A DNA stretch of 64,000 nt, taken from the NCBI RefSeq assembly GCF_024223415.1, contig NZ_CP100500.1. One strand, given 5' to 3'. Numbering within the stretch: position 1 is the stretch's first letter; each line of letters starts with the position of its first letter. Positions 2,691 through 35,394 of the stretch are shown piece after piece. Below the pieces are notes generated by a model. That model was not told the DNA's origin, did no database searches, and saw only the letters and a program-made list of their open reading frames with translations. The position numbers were made by a program, and so were the translations under genes. The stretch is from Escherichia coli (GTDB taxonomy: Bacteria > Pseudomonadota > Gammaproteobacteria > Enterobacterales > Enterobacteriaceae).

Positions 2691-3013
2691 GCAATCACCA
2701 TGTACACACAAAAAAACCGCTTGCAACAACAAACCGGAACAGGGTACGCTTCCCATGCACCTCATAAAACGGGTGTCGGGATTCTCAACCTGCTGACAAA
2801 CGAAGCGCACAACCGCGCCAGCGGTTTTTTTGTGCGTACTGTATTGCCACGTCTTTTTCGCATCAGAATTATGGTGGGGCGTACGGGGCCGACTTCGGTC
2901 GGGCCGGTTTCTTCGTTTGCCGGTGTTGAGAACCCCGTACGTCTCGCCACCCCGAGATTCTCAACTCTGGTTGGTGAGTATCCAAAAACTCACAAACGAA
3001 GAGGCCAAACACC

Positions 3014-3232
3014 ATGGCAAACCGCAAACAGCGCCGCGCTATCGCTGCGCAGCGTCACATCCAGACCGAAATCAACCGCAGACTCTTCCGCGCCCACAAC
3101 ATCGCGCGAATCATGCACGCCAACATGCTGCATGAACGCAGTAACGCGTTATCAAACCTCTATTCCGCTTCCGTTTTCAGCTATCTGGCGGACGACCTGC
3201 GCGAGCTGCAAGACCTCATTAACCAGCACTGA
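3014..3232 (+). CDS. hypothetical small basic protein (72 aa)
   Basis: ORF with Shine-Dalgarno GAAGAGG upstream. Confidence 0.35.
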   Translation: MANRKQRRAIAAQRHIQTEINRRLFRAHNIARIMHANMLHERSNALSNLYSASVFSYLADDLRELQDLINQH

Positions 3233-3304
3233 TAAACAACCCGAAGCCATCCTGCGCCCGTTCGCGGGAGGCTTCCGCACATCTGTAGTCGGGAGGATTG
3301 CGCC

Positions 3305-3673
3305 ATGATTCTGGCTGACGATTTTCTGGAGTACCTGAACAACACCGAGCGCGACCTGTACGCGCGCGTTCTCACCCGTTACGAGAAATACAAACTTTCG
3401 CTGCCAGAACATCAACTCCGCGAAGGCGATATCGACATTGAAGGGCGCTACATCGTCAGGCACCTCATAGCGGGCTACGGCATCTGGCGTGTCACCGGAC
3501 GTGAGCATTCATTGCTGACCATCTGCCAGAGTCCGTCCGGCGTGATAACGGAGATCGTCGCTGATAGTCTGCGACTCACCCATCACAGCGCCACCCCGGA
3601 AGAAACGCTGGCAGAAACCCAGCGTCTGTGTCGCGTCATTGCCAACGCCGCCCTCCGCGCAGACAGGAGGTAA
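3305..3673 (+). CDS. hypothetical prophage early protein (122 aa) immediately upstream of replication gene
   Basis: GGGAGG Shine-Dalgarno; ends 3 nt before gene A start. Confidence 0.5.
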   Translation: MILADDFLEYLNNTERDLYARVLTRYEKYKLSLPEHQLREGDIDIEGRYIVRHLIAGYGIWRVTGREHSLLTICQSPSGVITEIVADSLRLTHHSATPEETLAETQRLCRVIANAALRADRR

Positions 3674-20765: not shown

Positions 20766-22778
20766 ATGAGCACGAGAAAATTCAGAACCCTTATCACCGA
20801 CATCGGGCTGGCAAAGCTGGCCGCAACAACGGCGCCTGGCGGTAGACCTGTACGCCTTACGCACATGGCTGTAGGGGACGGCAATGGAGAGCTTCGTCAG
20901 CCGCAGAAAAACCAGACATCGCTTTACAATGAGGTTTGGCGCCAGTCTGTCAACCGCGTCTTCACCGACCCGGAGAACCCGAACCGCCTCATCGCCGAAC
21001 TGGTCATTCCTCCTGAAACCGGCGGATTCTGGGTGCGTGAAATTGGTGTGTTTGATGATACAGGTACAATGATTGCAGTAGGAAATACCGCTGAAAGTTA
21101 CAAGCCCACCAGAGAGGAAGGTTCAGGGCGGGCGCAGATATTCCGTGCAGTAATCACCGTCACCTCCGACGCCGTGGTGGAACTGGTCATGGACACAACA
21201 ACAATTCTGCCGACCACGGACTACATTGATGAGAAAATGGCGGAACACGCACGTTCCCGTAACCACCCTGACGCGACACTGACAGAAAAAGGATTCACCC
21301 AACTGAGCAGTGCCACAAACAGCAATTCCGAAACACTGGCGGCCACACCAAGAGCCGTCAAGGCTGCATATGACCTTGCAGCCGGTAAAGCACCCGCCAG
21401 CCACACCCACCCGTGGAATCAGATAACAGGTGTGCCATCAGCCTCGCTGACGGCAAAAGGCACCGTACAGCTGAGCAGTGCCACAAACAGTGAGTCAGAG
21501 ACTGAGGCCGCCACCCCCAAAGCGGTTAAAGCCTTACACGATATGCTGACGAGCAAGTATACAGGACAGGATGCAACCACCGGACGCAAAGGCATCGTGC
21601 AGCTGAGCAGCGCCACAAACAGCAATTCCGAAACGCTGGCGGCCACACCAAGAGCCGTCAAGGCTGCATATGACCTTGCAGCCGGTAAAGCACCCGCCAG
21701 CCACACCCACCCGTGGAATCAGATAACAGGTGTGCCATCAGCCTCGCTGACGGCAAAAGGCACCGTACAGCTGAGCAGTGCCACAAACAGTGAGTCAGAG
21801 ACTGAGGCCGCCACCCCCAAAGCGGTTAAAGCCTTACACGATATGCTGACGAGCAAGTATACAGGACAGGATGCAACCACCGGACGCAAAGGCATCGTGC
21901 AGCTGAGCAGCGCCACAAACAGCAATTCCGAAACGCTGGCGGCCACACCAAGAGCCGTCAAGGCTGCATATGACCTTGCAGCCGGTAAAGCACCCGCCAG
22001 CCACACCCATCCGTGGAATCAGATAACAGGTGTTCCATCAGCCTCGCTGACGGCAAAAGGTACCGTACAGCTTAGCAGTGCCACAAACAGCAATTCCGAA
22101 ACGCTGGCGGCCACACCAAGAGCTGTTAAAGCTGCGTATGACCTTGCCAACAGCAAAGCCGCGGCAGCCCACACTCATCGCTGGGCTCAGATCACAGACG
22201 CCCCTGTTTTTTCGTCTGTTGCCCGCGTCATCATGGGTAAACAAAGCATAAAAGATATTCTTGATTACCTTGGTTTAGGAGAAGGCTCGACGCTGCCAGT
22301 TGGCGTACCCGTTCCGTGGCCTTCGTCAAGACCACCTGAAGGGTGGTTACAGTGCAATGGTGCCGCATTCACGCGTACAAAATACCCAAAACTGGCAGTG
22401 GCCTACCCTGACCTAAGGCTACCAGATTTGCGCGGGGAATTTATTCGTGGATGGGATGACCTGCGAATGATTGACAGGGGACGCTTATTGTTATCCACAC
22501 AGGAAGCAACATATATTTGTACCGCCATACAGGCGTACCACGGCGTAGCGGGAGGTGCAGATATTCAGGCAGGGATTTCATTTGCATCACATGATAACGA
22601 CATCATAAACATAACCCCTGATCAACCCAGAACCGGTAACGGCATCCTGTACGGCAGAAAACCAGTTGACAGATGGGCAATAGCCAGAGCCGGTAAGCTG
22701 GTGAGTAATGAAAAAGACAGATGGATAGCGATCAGACCGCGCAATATCGCTTTTAATTATATTGTGAGGGCAGTTTAA
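20766..22778 (+). CDS. tail fibre protein (P2 gpH-like, 670 aa) with internally repeated shaft
   Basis: Repeated QLSSATNSxSETxAATPxAVKA motifs and a distinct C-terminal domain. Confidence 0.8.
   Translation: MSTRKFRTLITDIGLAKLAATTAPGGRPVRLTHMAVGDGNGELRQPQKNQTSLYNEVWRQSVNRVFTDPENPNRLIAELVIPPETGGFWVREIGVFDDTGTMIAVGNTAESYKPTREEGSGRAQIFRAVITVTSDAVVELVMDTTTILPTTDYIDEKMAEHARSRNHPDATLTEKGFTQLSSATNSNSETLAATPRAVKAAYDLAAGKAPASHTHPWNQITGVPSASLTAKGTVQLSSATNSESETEAATPKAVKALHDMLTSKYTGQDATTGRKGIVQLSSATNSNSETLAATPRAVKAAYDLAAGKAPASHTHPWNQITGVPSASLTAKGTVQLSSATNSESETEAATPKAVKALHDMLTSKYTGQDATTGRKGIVQLSSATNSNSETLAATPRAVKAAYDLAAGKAPASHTHPWNQITGVPSASLTAKGTVQLSSATNSNSETLAATPRAVKAAYDLANSKAAAAHTHRWAQITDAPVFSSVARVIMGKQSIKDILDYLGLGEGSTLPVGVPVPWPSSRPPEGWLQCNGAAFTRTKYPKLAVAYPDLRLPDLRGEFIRGWDDLRMIDRGRLLLSTQEATYICTAIQAYHGVAGGADIQAGISFASHDNDIINITPDQPRTGNGILYGRKPVDRWAIARAGKLVSNEKDRWIAIRPRNIAFNYIVRAV
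21296..22140 (+). repeat. near-perfect 300-bp tandem repeats (about 2.8 copies) inside tail-fibre gene H
   Basis: 21421-21600 is identical to 21721-21900 and 21601-21720 is identical to 21901-22020 as printed; in-frame (100 aa per unit). Confidence 0.85.
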
Positions 22779-23459: not shown

Positions 23460-23948
23460 TCACATCAGATCATTTACGCCGCTTACTGTGGTATTCCAGA
23501 CCGAACTTAACTTCCCTTTCATTCCCGAAAGCATATCAGACACCGGCGACGAGGCCATACTCTCCCGCAAATCCTCATCACAGCGTTCCAGACTGACAGT
23601 GAACTCAATTTTTTTGGCCTTACCGTGGCGGTCAAGTTCGCTTCGCGTTGTGCGGACAGCCGTTATCACATACATGCCGTATATCTGCCCCACACCGTCA
23701 ATCAGCGGCCATGGGCGACCAGTGTAAGCCTGCGTCGTTAAAAGGCTGAGGGAAACCTCACCGCCGGTAATTTCGGGATAAAGCACACCGGACAACGTGA
23801 TCTGGTCGTCACCCGCCCCGATATACTGCCAGCTGGCCGAACGATTGATGCGTTCATTTTTAACGTGGCGCCAGGTTTTATTATGTTGCAGTTGTTGATG
23901 AGGCAGCGTACGCAACTCAAAAACAAACATGCCGTAAATCATCATCAT
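23460..23948 (-). CDS. tail protein U (P2 gpU-like, 162 aa)
   Basis: MMMIYGMFVFELRT...WRH...NRS...TLSGVL...TGG closely resembles the P2 gpU N-terminus. Confidence 0.75.
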   Translation of the reverse strand: MMMIYGMFVFELRTLPHQQLQHNKTWRHVKNERINRSASWQYIGAGDDQITLSGVLYPEITGGEVSLSLLTTQAYTGRPWPLIDGVGQIYGMYVITAVRTTRSELDRHGKAKKIEFTVSLERCDEDLRESMASSPVSDMLSGMKGKLSSVWNTTVSGVNDLM

Positions 23949-23959
23949 GCGAGGTACTC

Positions 23960-26900
23960 CTAATCTCTGTCACGGAAACTACCGACTGTCTGGCGGATAC
24001 GGCGTTCCATTTCCGCACGGACGGCATCACCCACCATTTTTGCCAGTTCGCGCGGGTTTTGCGTGTGAACATCATGCAGGTGAATATGCAGTTCGCCAGT
24101 TAATCCCCATGGTGCCGGATCACTCTGACGCGGTCGGGGCGATGCGGGGGATATGGGCTGGCGTACAGCCTCAACCACCGGACGGGATGTTGCCGTTACG
24201 ACGGGTGTCATTACCGGCGCAATATTGCCGGACACGACCGGTTTAATTACCGGGGAGAGCGTCGGTATAACATCGCCAGCCATAACCGGTTTGATCGCTG
24301 GCGAAATAACCGGAGCAACAGACTCAGCCATGACGGAACTGACAGGCTGAGGCGCTCTCACTATGCCAGCATCGATAACCAGCATGAGCTCGCGTACTGC
24401 CTCAAGGACAGGACGGGATATTGCCGCCATCACTGGTGTCATTAGCGGGGAGAACGTCGGCATGACATCGTGAGTCATAACCGGTTTGATCACCGGCGAA
24501 ACCACCGGCGTAATATTACCGGACAGTACCGGACGGACGACCGGAGGAATAACCGGCACATTATTCACGGACACCACCGGCTTCACGACCGGCGACACGT
24601 TCGCCGTGGTGGATATCAGCGGCGAAACACTGACAGGCGGTGGCGCTGGCAGCGGTGGCAACGAAGGCACACTGACCGACGGCACCTGCGGCAGTCTGAC
24701 AGGTGGCTCACTGACACTACCCGGTAACAGGGAAGCTGCGCGGTTAAAGCGTTCCTCCTTCCACTCACCACGAACGGCCAGCGCTTCCGGCAGGTTTTTA
24801 AAGATAATATCGCCGGGACCAGTGCGTTTTTTCGCCTGTTTCGCCTCATCCAGCAGACCACCGGTGTTATCGACGATTTTGTTCAGGCGGCGCATAGTGC
24901 CGGTATTCTCCCCCGTCAGGGGTGGTTGCCCCCCTTTGGGTTTTTCGCCGTCTTTTTTATCCTCGTCCTTTTTCGGCGGATTAATGACGTTAACATCCGC
25001 CAGAAGCATGGCAGCTTTCTCGTTCAGCAACTCCTTCTGTTTTAGTTCTTCCGCCTTTTTCCGGGCGCGCTCAACCGCCGACGGAATCAGCCCGAGTTTT
25101 TCCAGCACCCGGGTTAATGAGTCAATCAGCAGCGTAACCGGACCGGTCACCAGATTGCTGATAAACTCCCCGACCTTCTGCCCGAACGTACGCCCGGCTT
25201 CCGTGCACTTGTCCAGCTCATCCTTTGTTGTGCTTACCGGCGCGAACAAATCCACGAACCACTGCCACACACGCCCGATTGTCTGCCCGACATACTCAAA
25301 CAGCGGTCCCAGTGGTGCCACAGCCTCGCGCAGTGGCGTAAGCCCCTGCCACAGGCCGGACAAGAACCCGCCCACGACAGCCTTCAGCTGGTCCCAGTGC
25401 CGCCAGATAAGCACTGCCGCACCGACCAGTGTCGCCACCACAAGGCCCACCGGACTTAACAGAAAACCCAGCGCCCCGCCAAGTGCGCCCACCGCACCAC
25501 TCACCATCCCCCACAGTGCGGGCAGACCTGACAGTCTGAGCGCCAGTATTCCGATACCGCGCCCCAGTGAAATCAGTGCGCCGCCAGGTGAAGTGAACGC
25601 AGCCAGCAGACCACCACGCAGCGTACCGAGTAGTCCGCGCACGCCACGAAGCCGGACCGCAAGCCGTCCCGCACCGGTATCAAGACCGGCAAACAGCACA
25701 CGCCAGCCGCCAATACCACTCATCGACCCACCGAGTACGCCGCGCAGCTGCGTCAGTAACGGCAGCGCACGACCGAGGCCGGATGTGCCGGTCAGCAGGG
25801 CAAAACCAAGACGCAGTTTTGCCAGCGGCCCCAGCAACACGCCGGTAGCCAGTGACAGCGCCCCCGTGGCCGCAACCGCAGCCAGCAGTGCACCACCGGC
25901 AATCAGCAGTTGTTTTGTCAGTTCAGGGTGCGCCTGAGCCAGCGCGGTGACTTTCGCAATAACCCGGGTGAACGACTGCGTGACAGAACGCAGCGGCCCG
26001 TCAACGAGGTCAGCGACACGGATACGCAGCCCTTCCCATGCGCTGTTCAGTGATTTCAGGTCGCCGTCCAGGTTGTCCGCCATGATTCTGGCGTTTTCTT
26101 CCAGTTCGCCGTTGGCTGCCTGAATCTCACGCGTCAGGCGCGGCAGGTTTTTTTCGCCTGCCTGTTCAACCAGGCTCATCAGGGAGACATACGCCTCCTG
26201 ACCGGCAATATCTGAAAAGAACGAGACTTTTGCCGCGTTACCGTATTTACGGGTGGCCTGATACAGCTCATACAGGATATCTTCCATCGGGCGCATGTTC
26301 CCGTAAGCATCCTGCGTTTCCACGCCCAGCTGTTTCAGCGCCTTTGCTGCCGCTTTAGGCGGGTTCACAAGGCGGGACAGACTGGAGCGCAGCGCCGTAC
26401 CAGCATCACTGCCACGTATCCCCATCGACCCAAGCAACCCGGTCATGGCTGCGGTCTGTTCAAGAGACAGACCGAGTGAGGCGGCGACCGGTCCCGTATA
26501 TTTCATCGTCTCACCAAGCCCGCGCAGGTCGGTATTGGTGCGGGTGAACGTTGCGGCCAGCGTGTCACCCACGCGGTTCATCTGGTCGGCAGACAACCCG
26601 AACTGTGTAAGGATATTTGAGCTGATATCGGCCGTCTGACCGAGGTCCATGCCGCTGGCCGTTGCCAGATTCAGCACGCCGGGAAGAGCCGCCTGTATCG
26701 CCTGCGGCGTGAACCCCGCCATGGCAAGGAACGCCTGACCGCTGGCAGCATCACCTGCGGTAAACTGCGTTTCGGAGCCGAGTTTAAGCGCCTGTTCGCG
26801 CAGCGCCTTAAACTGCGGACTGTTTTTGTCAATACGGGTCAGCGCCTGGACGCGCGACATCTCCTTACCAAAACTGACCGCCGGTTGCAGGAAACGCCCG

Positions 26901-27517
26901 GCCGCATAGCCACCTGCCGCTGCCGTGCCGACTGCCGTAAATCCACCCGCTTTCAGTTTTCCCGCCATCTCCTGAGCGCGGAAATATTGCTGGCGTGCCT
27001 GCGTGACGCGTGCCAGAGTCTGCCGTTCACGTTCCAGCTGTTCGTTGTATTGCTGTGTTCGCCGTATGGCCTGTTGAATGGTGTTGTCACTGCCGGAAAG
27101 CGCAATACCGTGACGCCGCAGCTCACCACCCAGTTCGCGCATTCGCTGAACTTCACGCGCACGGACCTCATTGAGACGCTCAAGTTTGAGGCTCAAATCG
27201 TTCATCAGCTTTTTCTGTTTGTCAGACAGCACGGTTCCGGCGCGCTGAATTTGCTGAAGTGCGCTTAACTGGCGTTGTGCCCGGGCAATGCCGTTTCCGG
27301 CCTTGTTTGCAGCCTCGCGGGCGCGATCAAATGAACGGGCGTGGCGTTCCAGGTTTTTGATCGCACCCTGCGTTCTCTGTATGGAGTCGCCAAGCTGGCC
27401 CATCATGCGACGGGCGTTTTCGGTGGGACGGGTCAGCCTGTCAACAGCGCTGAAGGCGACCCGTATATCAAGCGTTTTCATGCTCTGCGTTCCCGCTGCG
27501 AAGGGCCGCCCGCTCAC
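23960..27517 (-). CDS. tail tape measure protein (P2 gpT-like, 1185 aa) with C-terminal Pro/Val-rich repeat extension
   Basis: Long helical/Gly-rich ORF between E and U; C-terminal about 200 aa made of PVxxP-type repeats. Confidence 0.85.
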   Translation of the reverse strand: MSGRPFAAGTQSMKTLDIRVAFSAVDRLTRPTENARRMMGQLGDSIQRTQGAIKNLERHARSFDRAREAANKAGNGIARAQRQLSALQQIQRAGTVLSDKQKKLMNDLSLKLERLNEVRAREVQRMRELGGELRRHGIALSGSDNTIQQAIRRTQQYNEQLERERQTLARVTQARQQYFRAQEMAGKLKAGGFTAVGTAAAGGYAAGRFLQPAVSFGKEMSRVQALTRIDKNSPQFKALREQALKLGSETQFTAGDAASGQAFLAMAGFTPQAIQAALPGVLNLATASGMDLGQTADISSNILTQFGLSADQMNRVGDTLAATFTRTNTDLRGLGETMKYTGPVAASLGLSLEQTAAMTGLLGSMGIRGSDAGTALRSSLSRLVNPPKAAAKALKQLGVETQDAYGNMRPMEDILYELYQATRKYGNAAKVSFFSDIAGQEAYVSLMSLVEQAGEKNLPRLTREIQAANGELEENARIMADNLDGDLKSLNSAWEGLRIRVADLVDGPLRSVTQSFTRVIAKVTALAQAHPELTKQLLIAGGALLAAVAATGALSLATGVLLGPLAKLRLGFALLTGTSGLGRALPLLTQLRGVLGGSMSGIGGWRVLFAGLDTGAGRLAVRLRGVRGLLGTLRGGLLAAFTSPGGALISLGRGIGILALRLSGLPALWGMVSGAVGALGGALGFLLSPVGLVVATLVGAAVLIWRHWDQLKAVVGGFLSGLWQGLTPLREAVAPLGPLFEYVGQTIGRVWQWFVDLFAPVSTTKDELDKCTEAGRTFGQKVGEFISNLVTGPVTLLIDSLTRVLEKLGLIPSAVERARKKAEELKQKELLNEKAAMLLADVNVINPPKKDEDKKDGEKPKGGQPPLTGENTGTMRRLNKIVDNTGGLLDEAKQAKKRTGPGDIIFKNLPEALAVRGEWKEERFNRAASLLPGSVSEPPVRLPQVPSVSVPSLPPLPAPPPVSVSPLISTTANVSPVVKPVVSVNNVPVIPPVVRPVLSGNITPVVSPVIKPVMTHDVMPTFSPLMTPVMAAISRPVLEAVRELMLVIDAGIVRAPQPVSSVMAESVAPVISPAIKPVMAGDVIPTLSPVIKPVVSGNIAPVMTPVVTATSRPVVEAVRQPISPASPRPRQSDPAPWGLTGELHIHLHDVHTQNPRELAKMVGDAVRAEMERRIRQTVGSFRDRD

Positions 27518-27631: not shown

Positions 27632-27994
27632 TCAGCCTGCCGTCGCCGCCACGCTCTTCCCGCCAGAGTCCTGACCGGCCAAAAAATTAACCGCCACCCC
27701 GCACAGCTGAATAAAATCAGCGGACCCCATGCGCTTAAGCAGAACCTCGTCCAGTCGCGGCGAAGTGACGCGCGGGAGTAACTCAAACATCGCGTCCGTT
27801 TTCATGTTCAGCACGTCAAGCAGTGACAGCCCGCGCAGTGAACCGGCCTGCTGTACAGCAGGCGTGATTTCCACATACGTGATTTTTTTGTTACCGAGCA
27901 CAAGGGGCGTTTTCAGCGTCACGCCGCGCTCACTGGTCACGTCCGCCGCATCAGCACCGTCAGTAACAGGGGCAACAACCGGATTTTCTTTCAT
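27632..27994 (-). CDS. tail assembly chaperone (P2 gpE-like); E' presumably made by -1 frameshift
   Basis: Position between tail tube and tape measure genes; TTTTTTG heptamer near the 3' end. Confidence 0.65.
   Translation of the reverse strand: MKENPVVAPVTDGADAADVTSERGVTLKTPLVLGNKKITYVEITPAVQQAGSLRGLSLLDVLNMKTDAMFELLPRVTSPRLDEVLLKRMGSADFIQLCGVAVNFLAGQDSGGKSVAATAG
27680..27686 (-). other. slippery heptamer T_TTT_TTG for programmed -1 frameshift (E/E' chaperone)
   Basis: Reverse complement of CAAAAAA at 27680-27686 lies in-frame at ...NFLAGQ... near the end of gpE. Confidence 0.55.
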
Positions 27995-28044: not shown

Positions 28045-28563
28045 TTAACCACCAAGACCAATCGCCGAGCGCACGCGGTCCGGGAAGACGCTTTTGCCGT
28101 CCTTGCGTTCGATGTGGTTCAGTAAATCAATCTCCAGCACCGGACGGTCGTTAATGCTGAGTTTGTAGTAGGTACTTTTGACCGCATAGGTGTGAGACGT
28201 GACCTCACCCTGTTTGGCCTCCCCGGTATCAATTTCCGTCACGCGACCGCGAAGCTCAATCTCGTACAGGTCACTCTGTTCTTCATCGTTGTAGTACTCA
28301 CCGACAAAGCGCAGCAGCGTACCGTCAATCGTTCCGCCGTACTTGAGGAACAGTTCGCGGGTCGGCCCGCCCATGGTGAAACTCGCATCCAGCGCGCCGT
28401 CATCCAGGCCAAGGTCGATATTTACTGCACCGGCCATACCACCACCGCGATAGGCTTCCGTTTTACGGGTCAGTTTGGGGGCCGTGAAGCCGGTCACTCT
28501 GCCAATCTGGTTCACCCCGTCAGTAAACAGCGTGAACACCCTGAGATTTTTTGGTACGGCCAT
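28045..28563 (-). CDS. tail tube protein (P2 gpFII-like, 172 aa)
   Basis: Position and size downstream of sheath gene. Confidence 0.75.
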   Translation of the reverse strand: MAVPKNLRVFTLFTDGVNQIGRVTGFTAPKLTRKTEAYRGGGMAGAVNIDLGLDDGALDASFTMGGPTRELFLKYGGTIDGTLLRFVGEYYNDEEQSDLYEIELRGRVTEIDTGEAKQGEVTSHTYAVKSTYYKLSINDRPVLEIDLLNHIERKDGKSVFPDRVRSAIGLGG

Positions 28564-29846
28564 TAAGCACCTCCAAGCGTCGCAAATGCAGGACCAAAGA
28601 ATTCATCAGTAAACGTCTGGTAAAGTTCCATATCCTCAAGCGGCGGAACGGGCGTGTACTTGTAGCGGATACGCACGCGTCCCTGACGAAGTTCCGTGGT
28701 GCTGTTATCCACCACGTCATACCAGCACTCCGCACCAACGAGACGTCCTGACGTAACCAGCGCATCCAGTTTTGCGCGAATTGCGCTTAACACGTCTTTC
28801 ACATTAGCAGGGGTCAGCGGGGCATCAATCGTTTCAAACTGCGCTTCCGCAACAGAATCAGCCAGCACCTGAGCGGTTCGCGTGTACACCTCAAAGATAT
28901 ACGCCTTCGTTTCCGGCGTACGGTTGCCCCAGAAGCGGAAACCGTTACGGCGAATGATGGTGGTGATTTCCTTGTTGTTGAGATTGTTGGCATCGCTGTC
29001 TTCGGACTGAAGGGACCAGAACACCGGGCTGGAAATACCCAGCACATTTCTTACCGGCACGTTGGACAGCGATTTATGCCAGCCCTGTTCGTGGTCAATA
29101 CGTGCACGTAAACCGCAGGCGTACGCCGCAGCCGGGAAGACCTCATTAGCGCCGGATTTCGGGTTATGGGCGATGAAGTCAGGCCAGAGCAGCATAAGTT
29201 CGCGCTCGTTAAATCTGGCGCGGTAGCTGATTGCATCAGCGGGCTTCTTGCAGTTGTGACAGCCCGCGTAGACAAATGCGCGAAGTTTTTCTGCAATTAC
29301 ACACAGGGATTTTGTGACAGCTTCAGTATCCAGTCCGGGAGCTGCGATGATGCGCGGACGGTAACCGATGGCATCATCCTGTTCAGCTATCAGAAGTGCA
29401 TACATACCGGTATAATTACCGTCGCCATCCGTGCCACCAATGACATACTGGTCCTGCGTTTTGTGTGGGTATACAGGATGTGCATCTTCAGACTCATCAA
29501 TACCAAAAAATGCCCTGTCTTCAGGATCCAGATGACCGAATGATGTAACTCCTGTATCCGGGGCGCCCTGAGAACTGGCATCAGGAACGCGCACCACAAT
29601 CACCTTCGTGCTCACCTGGTCGGCGACAGCCTTAAGCGATTTGTAAAGCGTCCCCTTTGTGCCGGCCTTACCCAGCACATCACTGACGCGGGTCAGCAGT
29701 GTGGGTTTGTTCAGCGGGAACAGAGTTTCATCCGCGTCATCTGCCGTAGCCACAATACCAATAACACTGGAATCCACATCATTAATGGCGGTGGCAAGGC
29801 CGGTACTTTCCCTTACGCGCGCACCATGAAAGCGTGTTTCACTCAT
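28563..29846 (-). CDS. tail sheath protein (P2 gpFI-like; start at MSETRFHGARV)
   Basis: N-terminal region resembles the P2 FI N-terminus (HG..V.E...G......A.VG...TA.DAD...FPLNKP). Confidence 0.8.
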   Translation of the reverse strand: MSETRFHGARVRESTGLATAINDVDSSVIGIVATADDADETLFPLNKPTLLTRVSDVLGKAGTKGTLYKSLKAVADQVSTKVIVVRVPDASSQGAPDTGVTSFGHLDPEDRAFFGIDESEDAHPVYPHKTQDQYVIGGTDGDGNYTGMYALLIAEQDDAIGYRPRIIAAPGLDTEAVTKSLCVIAEKLRAFVYAGCHNCKKPADAISYRARFNERELMLLWPDFIAHNPKSGANEVFPAAAYACGLRARIDHEQGWHKSLSNVPVRNVLGISSPVFWSLQSEDSDANNLNNKEITTIIRRNGFRFWGNRTPETKAYIFEVYTRTAQVLADSVAEAQFETIDAPLTPANVKDVLSAIRAKLDALVTSGRLVGAECWYDVVDNSTTELRQGRVRIRYKYTPVPPLEDMELYQTFTDEFFGPAFATLGGA

Positions 29847-29922
29847 ATGTTTCACCCTTGTCTGGCTGGTTGATTTTGCGTAATCATTACCCACACACGC
29901 GGTAATCTCACCCCTTTGATGT

Positions 29923-29940
29923 TGTCTCCTGACAGCGACA
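29923..29940. promoter_or_regulatory. TGT-N12-ACA dyad (candidate Ogr site) between divergent FI and D genes
   Basis: TGTctcctgacagcgACA lies about 55 bp from plausible start sites for both FI (minus) and D (plus). Confidence 0.4.
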
Positions 29941-30007
29941 ACAAAACAGCCATTCAACGCCGCTACGGTGCATGAAACCATTACAGAACGCACCAGGAGA
30001 GAACACC

Positions 30008-31099
30008 ATGAAAGAGCTGTCAGTTACCGTTCCGTCACCGGATATCGACATCACCATCAACAACAACACACTGGCAAACCTCACAGAGCGACTCATGACG
30101 CTGTCACTGACCGACAACCGGGGCTTTGAGGCGGACCGCGTCACCCTGACCATTGACGACGCGGACGGGCAGCTTCAGCTGCCACAGCGCGGCGCACGCC
30201 TGAACGTGATGATTGGCTGGCGCGGGGAGGCGCTGGTTAACAAGGGTGTCTACATCGTTGATGAAGTGACGTGGGAAGGCCCGCCGGACAAACTGACCAT
30301 CACCGCCAGCAGCGCCGATTTTCGCGAAGAGTTCAACGTGAAGCGTGAAGTCTCCTGGCACGACGTGACGGTAAAACAGGTTGTGTCAGCCATCGCGCAC
30401 CGCTACGGCCTGAAAGCACAGATAAGCGATATCCTCATGGATATCGAAATTGACCACGCAGACCAGACCGAAGAGAGTGATATATCCTTCCTGACCCGCA
30501 TGGCTGAAATGCTGGGTGCGATTGCCACCGTAAAAAACGGCAGCCTGTTATTCATTCTGCCGGGTGGCGGAACCGGGCCGGACGGAAAAGCCCTGCCTTC
30601 GTTCGCCATTACCCGCAGCAGCGGCGACAGTCACCGCTTTCGCATTGCTGACCGTGATGCGTATACGGGGGTCCGGGCGCACTGGCTCGATCTGAAGTTC
30701 GGGCAAAAGAAAAAAGTGAACGTGAAGCGACGCAGGGAAGCCGGGAAACAGAAACAGGAGAAGAGCAGCAGCCGGGAAGGTGATTACATGGAAGGCGCGG
30801 AAGGTAACGTCTACGTTCTGCGCAGGACTTACCAGAATGAAGAAACCGCACGACGTGCAGCAGCTGCAAAGTGGCAGGAACTACAGCGGGGCGCGGCATC
30901 ATTCTCCATCACGCTGGCGCGCGGTCGTGCCGACCTGTACCCTGAAATGCACGGCAGGGTAACAGGTTTTAAAAGCGAGGTGGACAATCAGGACTGGATT
31001 ATTGCCAGGGTGGAGCACAGCATAGATGAAAGCGGCTTCACCACACAACTGGAGCTGGAAGCGAAAATCCCCGAATGGATAGCAGATTCAGGCGGATAA
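30008..31099 (+). CDS. tail/late control protein D (P2 gpD-like, 363 aa)
   Basis: AGGAGA Shine-Dalgarno; size and position just before ogr. Confidence 0.75.
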   Translation: MKELSVTVPSPDIDITINNNTLANLTERLMTLSLTDNRGFEADRVTLTIDDADGQLQLPQRGARLNVMIGWRGEALVNKGVYIVDEVTWEGPPDKLTITASSADFREEFNVKREVSWHDVTVKQVVSAIAHRYGLKAQISDILMDIEIDHADQTEESDISFLTRMAEMLGAIATVKNGSLLFILPGGGTGPDGKALPSFAITRSSGDSHRFRIADRDAYTGVRAHWLDLKFGQKKKVNVKRRREAGKQKQEKSSSREGDYMEGAEGNVYVLRRTYQNEETARRAAAAKWQELQRGAASFSITLARGRADLYPEMHGRVTGFKSEVDNQDWIIARVEHSIDESGFTTQLELEAKIPEWIADSGG

Positions 31100-32889: not shown

Positions 32890-35394
32890 ATGTCACAAAC
32901 TATCGACCTGACCCTGGACGGCCTGTCCTGCGGTCACTGCGTTAAACGCGTGAAAGAAAGTCTCGAACAGCGCCCGGATGTGGAACAAGCGGATGTGTCT
33001 ATCACTGAAGCGCACGTTACCGGGACTGCCAGTGCAGAACAGCTGATCGAAACCATCAAACAAGCGGGTTATGACGCATCTGTAAGCCACCCAAAGGCTA
33101 AACCGCTGGCGGAGTCATCAATCCCGTCGGAAGCACTGACAGCGGTTTCTGAGGCGCTTCCGGCAGCGACCGCCGATGACGATGACAGCCAGCAGTTGCT
33201 GCTGAGCGGCATGAGCTGCGCCAGCTGTGTCACCCGCGTACAAAATGCGTTGCAAAGCGTACCGGGCGTCACTCAGGCACGGGTAAACCTGGCGGAGCGT
33301 ACTGCGCTGGTGATGGGCAGTGCCTCCCCACAAGATTTAGTGCAGGCGGTGGAAAAAGCGGGCTACGGTGCGGAAGCGATTGAAGATGACGCGAAACGCC
33401 GCGAGCGCCAGCAAGAAACCGCCGTCGCTACGATGAAGCGCTTCCGCTGGCAGGCAATTGTTGCATTGGCTGTGGGTATCCCGGTAATGGTCTGGGGGAT
33501 GATCGGCGATAACATGATGGTCACCGCTGACAACCGCAGCCTGTGGTTGGTTATCGGCCTGATAACCCTGGCAGTGATGGTTTTCGCCGGCGGCCATTTT
33601 TACCGCAGTGCATGGAAAAGCCTGCTGAACGGTGCAGCGACGATGGATACGCTGGTGGCGCTGGGTACTGGCGTGGCGTGGCTCTATTCGATGAGCGTCA
33701 ACCTGTGGCCGCAATGGTTCCCGATGGAAGCGCGACATCTTTATTACGAAGCCAGCGCGATGATTATCGGTCTGATTAATCTCGGCCATATGCTGGAAGC
33801 GCGCGCACGTCAGCGTTCTTCAAAGGCGCTGGAGAAATTACTCGATTTAACTCCGCCGACGGCGCGCCTGGTTACTGACGAAGGTGAAAAAAGCGTGCCG
33901 CTGGCGGAAGTTCAGCCAGGCATGCTACTGCGCCTGACGACGGGCGACCGCGTGCCAGTAGATGGCGAGATTACCCAGGGCGAAGCATGGCTGGATGAAG
34001 CGATGCTGACGGGCGAACCTATTCCGCAGCAAAAAGGCGAAGGCGATAGCGTCCATGCCGGTACAGTGGTACAGGACGGTAGCGTGCTGTTTCGCGCCAG
34101 TGCGGTTGGTAGCCATACCACGCTATCAAGGATCATTCGTATGGTGCGCCAGGCCCAGAGCAGTAAGCCAGAAATCGGTCAGCTGGCGGATAAAATCTCA
34201 GCCGTATTTGTGCCGGTAGTAGTGGTTATTGCGCTTGTCAGTGCGGCAATCTGGTATTTCTTTGGTCCGGCACCGCAGATTGTCTATACCCTGGTGATTG
34301 CCACCACGGTGCTGATTATTGCCTGCCCGTGTGCGCTGGGGCTGGCGACGCCGATGTCGATTATTTCCGGCGTCGGGCGGGCGGCTGAGTTTGGCGTGCT
34401 GGTGCGGGACGCCGACGCGCTGCAACGCGCCAGTACACTCGATACCGTCGTGTTCGATAAAACCGGGACGCTGACCGAAGGGAAGCCGCAGGTTGTCGCA
34501 GTGAAAACATTTGCTGATTTTGACGAAGCGCAGGCGCTGCGTCTGGCGGCGGCACTGGAACAAGGTTCCAGCCATCCGCTGGCACGGGCGATCCTCGATA
34601 AAGCAAGCGATATGCAGCTGCCGCAGGTCAACGGTTTCCGCACATTGCGCGGGCTGGGCGTGAGCGGTGAAGCTGAAGGTCATGCGTTATTGCTGGGCAA
34701 TCAGGCGCTGTTAAATGACCAGCAAGTTGATACTAAAGCGATTGAAGCAGATATTTCAGCTCAGGCATCGCAAGGGGCAACGCCTGTGCTGCTGGCGGTT
34801 GACGGGAAAGCGGTAGCCCTGCTGGCTGTACGCGATCCGTTGCGTAGTGATAGCGTGGCGGCGCTGCAACGTCTGCATAAAGCGGGATATCGTCTGGTGA
34901 TGTTGACCGGGGATAACCCAACCACCGCCAATGCGATCGCCAAAGAAGCAGGGATTGATGAGGTGATCGCCGGGGTGCTGCCGGACGGTAAAGCCGAAGC
35001 GATTAAACGCCTGCAAAGTGAAGGACGTCAGGTGGCAATGGTGGGCGACGGCATTAACGACGCGCCAGCGCTGGCTCAGGCGGATGTCGGCATTGCGATG
35101 GGTGGCGGCAGTGATGTTGCTATTGAAACCGCGGCGATTACCCTGATGCGCCATAGCCTGATGGGTGTTGCGGATGCGCTCGCTATTTCCCGCGCAACGC
35201 TGCGCAACATGAAGCAGAACCTGCTCGGCGCGTTTATCTACAACAGTATCGGTATTCCGGTTGCCGCCGGTATTTTGTGGCCGTTTACTGGAACACTGCT
35301 TAACCCGGTGGTTGCCGGAGCGGCAATGGCGCTCTCGTCGATTACCGTAGTGAGTAACGCCAACCGGTTGCTGCGGTTTAAACCGAAGGAATAA
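32890..35394 (+). CDS. copA: Cu(I)-translocating P-type ATPase
   Basis: 834-aa ORF with two N-terminal CxxC metal-binding motifs (GLSCGHC, GMSCASC), CPC and DKTGT motifs. Confidence 0.95.

Follow-up and report, generated by a model that had tools for sequence, protein, structure and literature searches.

Background

The tail tape-measure protein (TMP) of a bacteriophage is the textbook case of a molecular ruler, and to our knowledge the evidence for this role bears almost entirely on helical segments. In this work we describe a TMP gene on the minus strand of a stretch of 64,000 nucleotides of Escherichia coli DNA (RefSeq assembly GCF_024223415.1, contig NZ_CP100500.1; this whole stretch is referred to as the window), which belongs to a P2-like prophage and encodes a long array of proline- and valine-rich repeats close to the C-terminal end of the protein.

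Intragenic repeats and length variation are already known in TMPs, as are TMPs of more than 1000 amino acids (aa) in P2-like phages (PMC3091744). In P2-like phages of Burkholderia, TMPs of 842, 920 and 1075 aa are accompanied by tails of 140, 150 and 160 nm, respectively (PMC3091744). Escherichia phage P88 has a TMP of 935 aa and a tail of 137–140 nm (PMC5285337). Regarding the structure of these proteins, in phage Mu only the TMP residues 674–690 are ordered, and these contact the hub and the spike in the middle of the baseplate (PMC11915804). In diffocin, three TMP chains form a coiled coil that runs through the whole tube and touches the spike (PMC10996793).

The TMP of P88 (Xuanwuvirus, Peduoviridae; YP_009113088) is a collinear homologue of the window TMP over its full length, and the gene neighbourhood is the same, with a divergent D gene followed by FI, FII, E, E', T and U. 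Both proteins share the motif NLPxALAVRGxW and a C-terminal domain of the form HxHLH...GSFxDxD. Between these landmarks P88 has a short Pro/Val/Ala linker (68 aa, including NITPVVPAPLPPALVPVVAASSRPVAEAIR) that ends in SRPVAEAIR and is homologous to the end of the second repeat block of the window TMP; in contrast, the linker of the window TMP comprises 223 aa. P88 has neither the array of 16-aa units nor a second block, and it also lacks a hydrophobic segment of 83 aa found at residues ~585–670 of the window TMP. The TMP of phage P2, gpT (815 aa), belongs to the same family, as judged from the PF10145 region and the overall alignment, and is encoded at the same place after the E/E' frameshift pair; however, it has no Pro/Val segment and no C-terminal similarity by BLASTP, and in P2 gene D follows T and U in one operon whereas the gpD gene of the window is divergent. 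A resemblance of an HIxL motif to the C-terminus of P2 gpT was discarded, given that BLASTP of the C-terminal 60 aa gave no alignment.

Results and discussion

The Pro/Val array is an expanded internal linker

Read from the GTG codon at 27517, the maximal open reading frame (ORF) of the TMP gene (23960–27517, minus strand) gives a protein of 1185 aa, and residues are numbered on this version throughout. An alternative ATG start (MKTLDIRV) lies 12 codons downstream, at 27481, and would yield 1173 aa; since the homologous gene starts at ATG both in the P88 annotation and in that of the NCBI pipeline (PGAP), and this ATG overlaps the end of the E' frame, the true product probably has 1173 aa. The first-pass annotation, which had reported 1185 aa against roughly 800 for P2 gpT, was right about the ORF and about the excess over the 815 aa of gpT.

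Exact mapping of residues to nucleotides places the array at aa 930–1130 (24128–24730, minus strand). In these 201 residues Val amounts to 21% and Pro to 20%, the grand average of hydropathy (GRAVY) is +0.60, and there are 13 Lys and Arg, 8 Asp and Glu, five Gly and a single aromatic residue; in the rest of the TMP, Pro and Val together make up 2–18% of each 50-aa interval. At DNA level, ACCGG occurs 15 times in the plus strand of 24130–24730, against a mean of 1.3 (standard deviation 1.7) per 601 nucleotides (nt) across the 64 kb and a maximum of five in 1000 shuffles of the region. ACCGG is the reverse complement of CCG-GT, that is, of Pro-Val codon pairs. The description of a Pro/Val repeat reflected in ACCGG-rich DNA is therefore accurate and far above chance.

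The repeat had been described as a degenerate PVxxPV motif; it is better represented by a unit of 16 aa, PVxxPVxKPVxxxxxx, of which PVVSPVIKPVMTHDVM and PTLSPVIKPVVSGNIA are examples. Consecutive Pro residues are spaced by four positions in 12 cases and by eight in another 8, giving a 4/4/8 rhythm, and the identity autocorrelation of the array shows peaks at lags 16 and 65. A seed-based search for DNA repeats yielded spacings of 195, 231 and 291 nt, whereas Tandem Repeats Finder reported for the gene only a fragment of 12 nt in 2.5 copies, because in DNA sequence the repeats have become too degenerate. Neither the Gly at every third position of a collagen-like triple helix nor the 11-residue Trp/Phe period of helical TMP repeats was found in the array.

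The 16-aa units are arranged in two larger blocks preceded by a Pro-rich leader (aa 932–966). Block A (aa 959–1043; 24389–24643, minus strand) starts with APPPVSVS, includes units of 12–16 aa at residues 976, 988, 1004 and 1020, and ends with SRPVLEAVRE. It is followed by an 11-aa spacer devoid of Pro, LMLVIDAGIVR (aa 1044–1054; 24356–24388, minus strand), and by block B (aa 1055–1120; 24158–24355, minus strand), which starts with APQPVSSV, has units at 1069, 1085 and 1101, and ends with SRPVVEAVRQ. An APxPVS start and an SRPV(L/V)EAVR end are thus common to the two blocks. The matching parts of A and B are only 79–83% identical in nucleotide sequence, which indicates that the block duplication is not recent. 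The array has arisen by nested duplications, with 16-aa units inside blocks of 65–85 aa.

The array had been taken for a C-terminal extension. Nevertheless, it is followed by a non-repetitive domain of 55 aa (aa 1131–1185; 23963–24127, minus strand; GELHIHLHDV...GSFRDRD) that is charged and conserved in P88 and other relatives, so that what has expanded is an internal linker and not the end of the protein. The upstream edge of this variable linker is marked by the conserved motif GPGDIIFKNLPEALAVRGEW (aa 900–919; 24761–24820, minus strand), which is also present in P88 and in three more distant homologues of 955–1004 aa (P0125, P0129 and P0130).

Linker length was taken as the distance between NLPxALAVRGxW and HxHLH in every retrieved homologue carrying both motifs (n = 131). 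In 114 of them the linker has 68 aa; a further 8 have linkers of 47–67 aa, whereas 4 have 146 aa and 5 have 223 aa. The window TMP, which keeps both flanking motifs of the P88/Xuanwuvirus type in order, falls in the longest group and thus outside the range of 47–68 aa that covers 122 of the 131 homologues; the view that this TMP is atypical was correct. The nine sequences with linkers of 146 or 223 aa all belong to two E. coli clusters at 90% identity, P0001 (162 members) and P0002 (164 members), to which the long array is confined; the named members that were read are all from E. coli. Homologues commonly sharing the segment, which according to the first-pass annotation would argue against its being unusual, were found in part: TMPs of the P88 type share a short homologous linker, but not the long array. 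In P0125, P0129 and P0130 the flanking motifs are kept and the linkers, of 52–60 aa, are unrelated. Taken together, these comparisons show that the site of the array is a linker hypervariable in sequence and in length across the TMP family, which in the window has expanded in frame from about 50–70 aa to ~220 aa. The excess over the P88 TMP amounts to 250 residues, ~150 from the array and 83 from the hydrophobic segment mentioned above.

Searches with the array did not reveal any known domain. There were no Pfam families for the array at E ≤ 10, nothing meaningful in Pfam for the C-terminal domain or the 130 aa upstream, and no match for the last 300 aa in a sequence search of the PDB at E ≤ 10; the full TMP matches a single TMP chain in the PDB, 9g8s_w, over aa 30–652 only. 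An exhaustive phmmer search with aa 930–1185 against 1.84 billion representatives gave 21 matches, of which the genuine ones are restricted to the last ~100 aa. The phmmer matches on the array itself were discarded as unrelated Pro/Val repeat proteins of similar composition. With tblastn, the array alone gave best E-values of 2–6 against 50,697 phage records, among which no isolated phage carries it, and a literature search on proline-rich tape-measure segments and on Xuanwuvirus returned nothing on the array.

Alleles with one, two and three blocks

The region encoding the array and the C-terminus was found at an identity of at least 95% in 27 of 5426 complete E. coli genomes. Eight of these carry the length of the window, 17 are shorter by 231 nt, one is longer by 195 nt, and the remaining one lacks 241 nt and is frameshifted. 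Since several of the short alleles correspond to one strain sequenced repeatedly, the genomes do not count as independent cases. Complete E. coli genomes were confirmed to carry intact ORFs of four lengths (1115, 1185, 1192 and 1250 aa), and the 1115/1185/1250 series differs by in-frame indels of 231 and 195 nt. A single block is present, for instance, in strain SCU-115 (NZ_CP054368), two blocks in the window and in CS5L (NZ_CP158311), and three in Br_112_kylling (NZ_CP182371). In the DNA alignment the junctions of both indels fall in sequence shared by the repeats, CGGCAAYATCCCGTCC and ATCAAACCGGTTATG, as would be expected from unequal recombination or slippage. In addition, the gain of 195 nt in strain Br_112_kylling is a recombinant composed of the initial part of block B and the final part of block A, and in another homologue (P0147) a unit of block A has been converted to the sequence of block B. 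The number of blocks is thus still changing, apparently through unequal recombination between repeats.

In contrast with these changes in copy number, the two-block alleles are nearly invariant: those of different strains show 0–4 synonymous and 0–1 non-synonymous differences over 603 nt. Given that blocks A and B retain the Pro spacing and the SRPVxEAVR ending, the old duplication seems to have been kept under constraint.

A candidate extended spacer beside a presumed baseplate anchor

The array is coding, as a single ORF continues through it into the C-terminal domain common to P88. The reading that we favour, to which we attach about an even chance, is that an in-frame and recombination-prone array of 16-aa Pro/Val units enlarges the linker of the TMP and acts as an extended spacer that contributes to the ruler. 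By analogy with Mu gp42 (PMC11915804), the C-terminal 55 aa are presumed to be an anchor that binds the hub and the spike. The conserved C-terminus would then be clamped by these structures, and the array would lie in the hub or in the distal lumen of the tube, present as three parallel chains from three copies of the TMP. A Pro at about every fourth residue rules out an alpha-helical coiled coil for the array, which would most likely be a non-helical polyproline-II/coil spacer beside the baseplate anchor. Polyproline-II or coil conformations are expected for short repeats rich in Pro and Val, whose role would be that of a spacer or a spring joining two functional parts. A single-sequence AlphaFold2 model of the last 390 aa has a mean pLDDT of 47.6, with 30–40 in the array and ~78 in a predicted helix at aa 1155–1182 of the C-terminal domain; the array is thus not confidently folded in this model. 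If the array forms part of the ruler, alleles with one, two and three blocks would give stepwise longer tails, and judging from other phages the number of blocks probably changes tail length.

Several observations weigh against this reading or limit it. The tail of P2 measures about 135 nm, so that the tails of P88 and P2 are nearly equal despite a difference of 120 residues between their TMPs, although the electron microscopy values are rough. The published values for the P88 tail are too coarse to tell whether the linker residues count, and the tail-length arithmetic from published P2-like phages does not discriminate between a ruler and slack. The array is hydrophobic (GRAVY +0.6 to +0.8), which sets it apart from the usual soluble disordered linkers; a segment that is flexible measures length poorly and might be compacted within the lumen; and the low confidence of a model run on a single sequence is weak evidence for disorder. 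Finally, the two-block allele is no more common than the one-block allele and one strain is frameshifted, therefore selection for the long form is not evident.

An alternative that we consider rather unlikely is that the array is a tolerated low-complexity expansion, neutral for length, that is compacted in the lumen of the hub or the tube and leaves tail length and infectivity unchanged. Its Pro/Val composition would then merely reflect the amplification of an ancestral linker rich in Pro, Val, Ala and Ser. The hypervariability of the linker position across the family, the polymorphic copy number, in which no form is more frequent than the shortest, and the similar tails of P88 and P2 are consistent with this idea, as is our own estimate that three chains of 200 aa, fully packed, would occupy only about 6–7 nm of a lumen of 4 nm. 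In contrast, blocks A and B differ by ~20% at the nucleotide level and yet the frame, the Pro spacing and the end motifs have been kept, and the few changes among two-block alleles of different strains are mostly synonymous; both points argue against mere slack.

A stronger version of the spacer, which seems unlikely to us, is that the array is a polyproline-II/coil ruler module in which each block of 65–77 aa adds a fixed number of tube rings, or else an element of a DNA conduit that spans the periplasm. With about 0.31 nm per residue in the fully extended state, one block would correspond to about 20–24 nm, or 5–6 rings, as compared with about 10–12 nm for an alpha-helical segment of equal size.

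A role of the array in infection is more doubtful still. TMPs are expelled upon contraction of the tail and trans-envelope channels have been proposed; DNA injection by HK97 reportedly requires the TMP together with PtsG and the periplasmic chaperone FkpA. On the premise that the TMP exits the tube with its C-terminal end leading, a Pro-rich array could aid the DNA conduit as a rigid periplasmic spacer, as an element that interacts with the membrane, or as a client of a chaperone or prolyl isomerase, and both its hydrophobicity with low charge and its position next to the leading end would suit such a role. Nevertheless, the array has no homology to TonB-like or other characterised domains that span the periplasm, and close relatives infect E. 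coli with a linker of 68 aa, hence a long array is not essential for entry.

The way in which this gene appears in the databases could suggest instead that it is decayed. PGAP labels it as 'incomplete; missing C-terminus' in the six complete-genome loci inspected (L002, L003 and L005–L008) and annotates only the first ~590–730 codons. However, the window and five of these loci have an ORF that is intact over its full length (1115–1250 aa); in the five loci the C-terminal half, equivalent to 23960–25740 of the window, bears no feature. The sixth, that of strain 135 (L007), has a true frameshift, and there PGAP adds the last 127 codons (3001–3384 of the locus) as a separate tape-measure coding sequence. 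The listed proteins of P0001 and P0002 that cover the array are all 'partial' and come from contigs of 0.3–5.7 kb, and the full-length form of this TMP was found in none of the protein records retrieved. Evidently, short-read assemblies of E. coli break in or near the TMP gene, probably because of the repeat or of the presence of several related prophages in one genome (up to three places per genome); together with the RefSeq pseudogene label, these breaks account for the absence of the full-length protein from the retrieved records. A pseudogene in a defective prophage, or repeats created by assembly, is therefore very improbable and largely refuted: in spite of the label, the frameshift of strain 135 and the partial proteins, which contigs broken at repeats explain, the ORF is intact in the window and in five of the six loci checked, 27 complete genomes contain the same array, both indels preserve the frame and the neighbouring structural genes are all intact.

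Other variable segments of the tape-measure protein

The hydrophobic segment absent from P88 is rich in Gly, Leu and Arg and, according to the alignments, spans ~83 aa (aa ~585–670; 25508–25765, minus strand). It is present in other enterobacterial relatives (P0129 and P0130), and carries an indel of 7 aa between E. coli alleles (SCU-115 and the 1192-aa allele of CM2).

Upstream of the array, a patch of 17 aa (aa 849–865; 24923–24973) is wholly swapped between alleles that are otherwise ~98% identical: it reads KKDEDKKDGEKPKGGQP in the window and QNDKDKKPPVPAPAATA in CS5L, CM2, 23CRST011 and Br_112. This patch holds most of the differences in the last kilobase and constitutes a second mosaic linker.

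An ORF of 483 aa runs antisense to the TMP gene (24486–25937, plus strand), and is rich in Thr and Gly where it overlaps the array. It is also open in two other loci (545 aa in L002 and 490 aa in L003), and is probably a by-product of a coding sequence with 59% G+C.

The prophage and its tail genes

The identity of the gene as a TMP, proposed in the first-pass annotation, is well supported. The PF10145 (PhageMin_Tail) domain was found at aa 240–439 (26201–26800, minus strand) with E = 3.3e-58 and 197.3 bits, above the gathering threshold of 33.2, and the protein matches phrog_28, 'tail length tape measure protein', with E = 7e-190. The position of the gene is also that of a TMP. Upstream lies a gpE-like tail chaperone gene (27632–27994, minus strand), assigned from phrog_103, its sequence and the P2 annotation, which includes at 27680–27686 the TTTTTTG slippery site of the P2 type for the production of E+E'; the tube and sheath genes are found further upstream, and a gpU-like tail protein gene (23460–23948, minus strand; phrog_76, E = 3e-71) is placed directly downstream. 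The genes around the TMP also encode a divergent gpD, baseplate, fibre, portal, terminase, capsid and replication proteins, forming a full P2-like structural set, and the ybaL-fsr flank in the chromosome matches E. coli with 100% identity. From the domain, the neighbours and the identity of the flank, this is the TMP gene of a P2-like prophage of E. coli that is apparently complete.

Other features of this prophage were observed. The gpD-like gene (29972–31099, plus strand) diverges from the sheath gene (28563–29993, minus strand), as in P88, whereas the DNA invertase gene found next to gpU in P88 has no counterpart at that place in the window. The tail fibre gene (20766–22778, plus strand) contains at 21303–22090 a tandem repeat of 300 nt in 2.6 copies with 98% identity, that is, a near-perfect protein repeat of 100 aa that includes SSATNSNSETLAATPRAVKAAYDLAAGKAPASHTHPWNQITGVP. 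Just past the gpD end of the prophage, an ORF of 834 aa (32890–35394, plus strand) matches phrog_12316 (E = 6e-116), whose sole annotation is 'ATPase', and could be prophage cargo or a gene of a neighbouring island.

Comparison with known repeat systems

The intact alleles of 1115, 1185 and 1250 aa in otherwise similar prophages constitute a natural test of the share that a non-helical segment has in tail length. If the blocks act as a ruler module, the one-, two- and three-block alleles of E. coli prophages would tune the length of a contractile tail, and this would be the first view of a Pro-rich segment, not a coiled coil, that measures length. If, on the other hand, the array is inert slack, it would be one more low-complexity expansion in a structural protein of a phage. 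Overall, we regard it as a genuine, if modest, variation of something already known.

The Pro/Val-rich short repeats of the titin PEVK region, the VPGVG repeats of elastin-like proteins and the Pro-rich rod of TonB act as extended spacers, and offer an analogy only: no sequence relationship to the array is detectable, charged residues are much scarcer in the array than in PEVK or TonB and, in contrast with elastin, Gly is almost absent. The intragenic tandem repeats in the TMPs of siphophages such as TP901-1 and of staphylococcal phages and mycobacteriophages are nearer, in that they too lie within a TMP gene. Duplication and loss of these siphophage repeats is known as a mode of TMP evolution. 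Their number has been reported, as quoted from Pedersen 2000 in a later source, to scale with tail length. Siphophage repeats, however, are helical, marked by aromatic residues with a period of 11 aa, and located in the body of the ruler; in contrast, the array described here is defined by Pro with a period of 16 aa, and is placed beside the C-terminal anchor. What is new with respect to these systems is the type of repeat, Pro/Val with a 16-aa period and non-helical, its place next to the anchor, and the natural series of alleles with one, two and three blocks.

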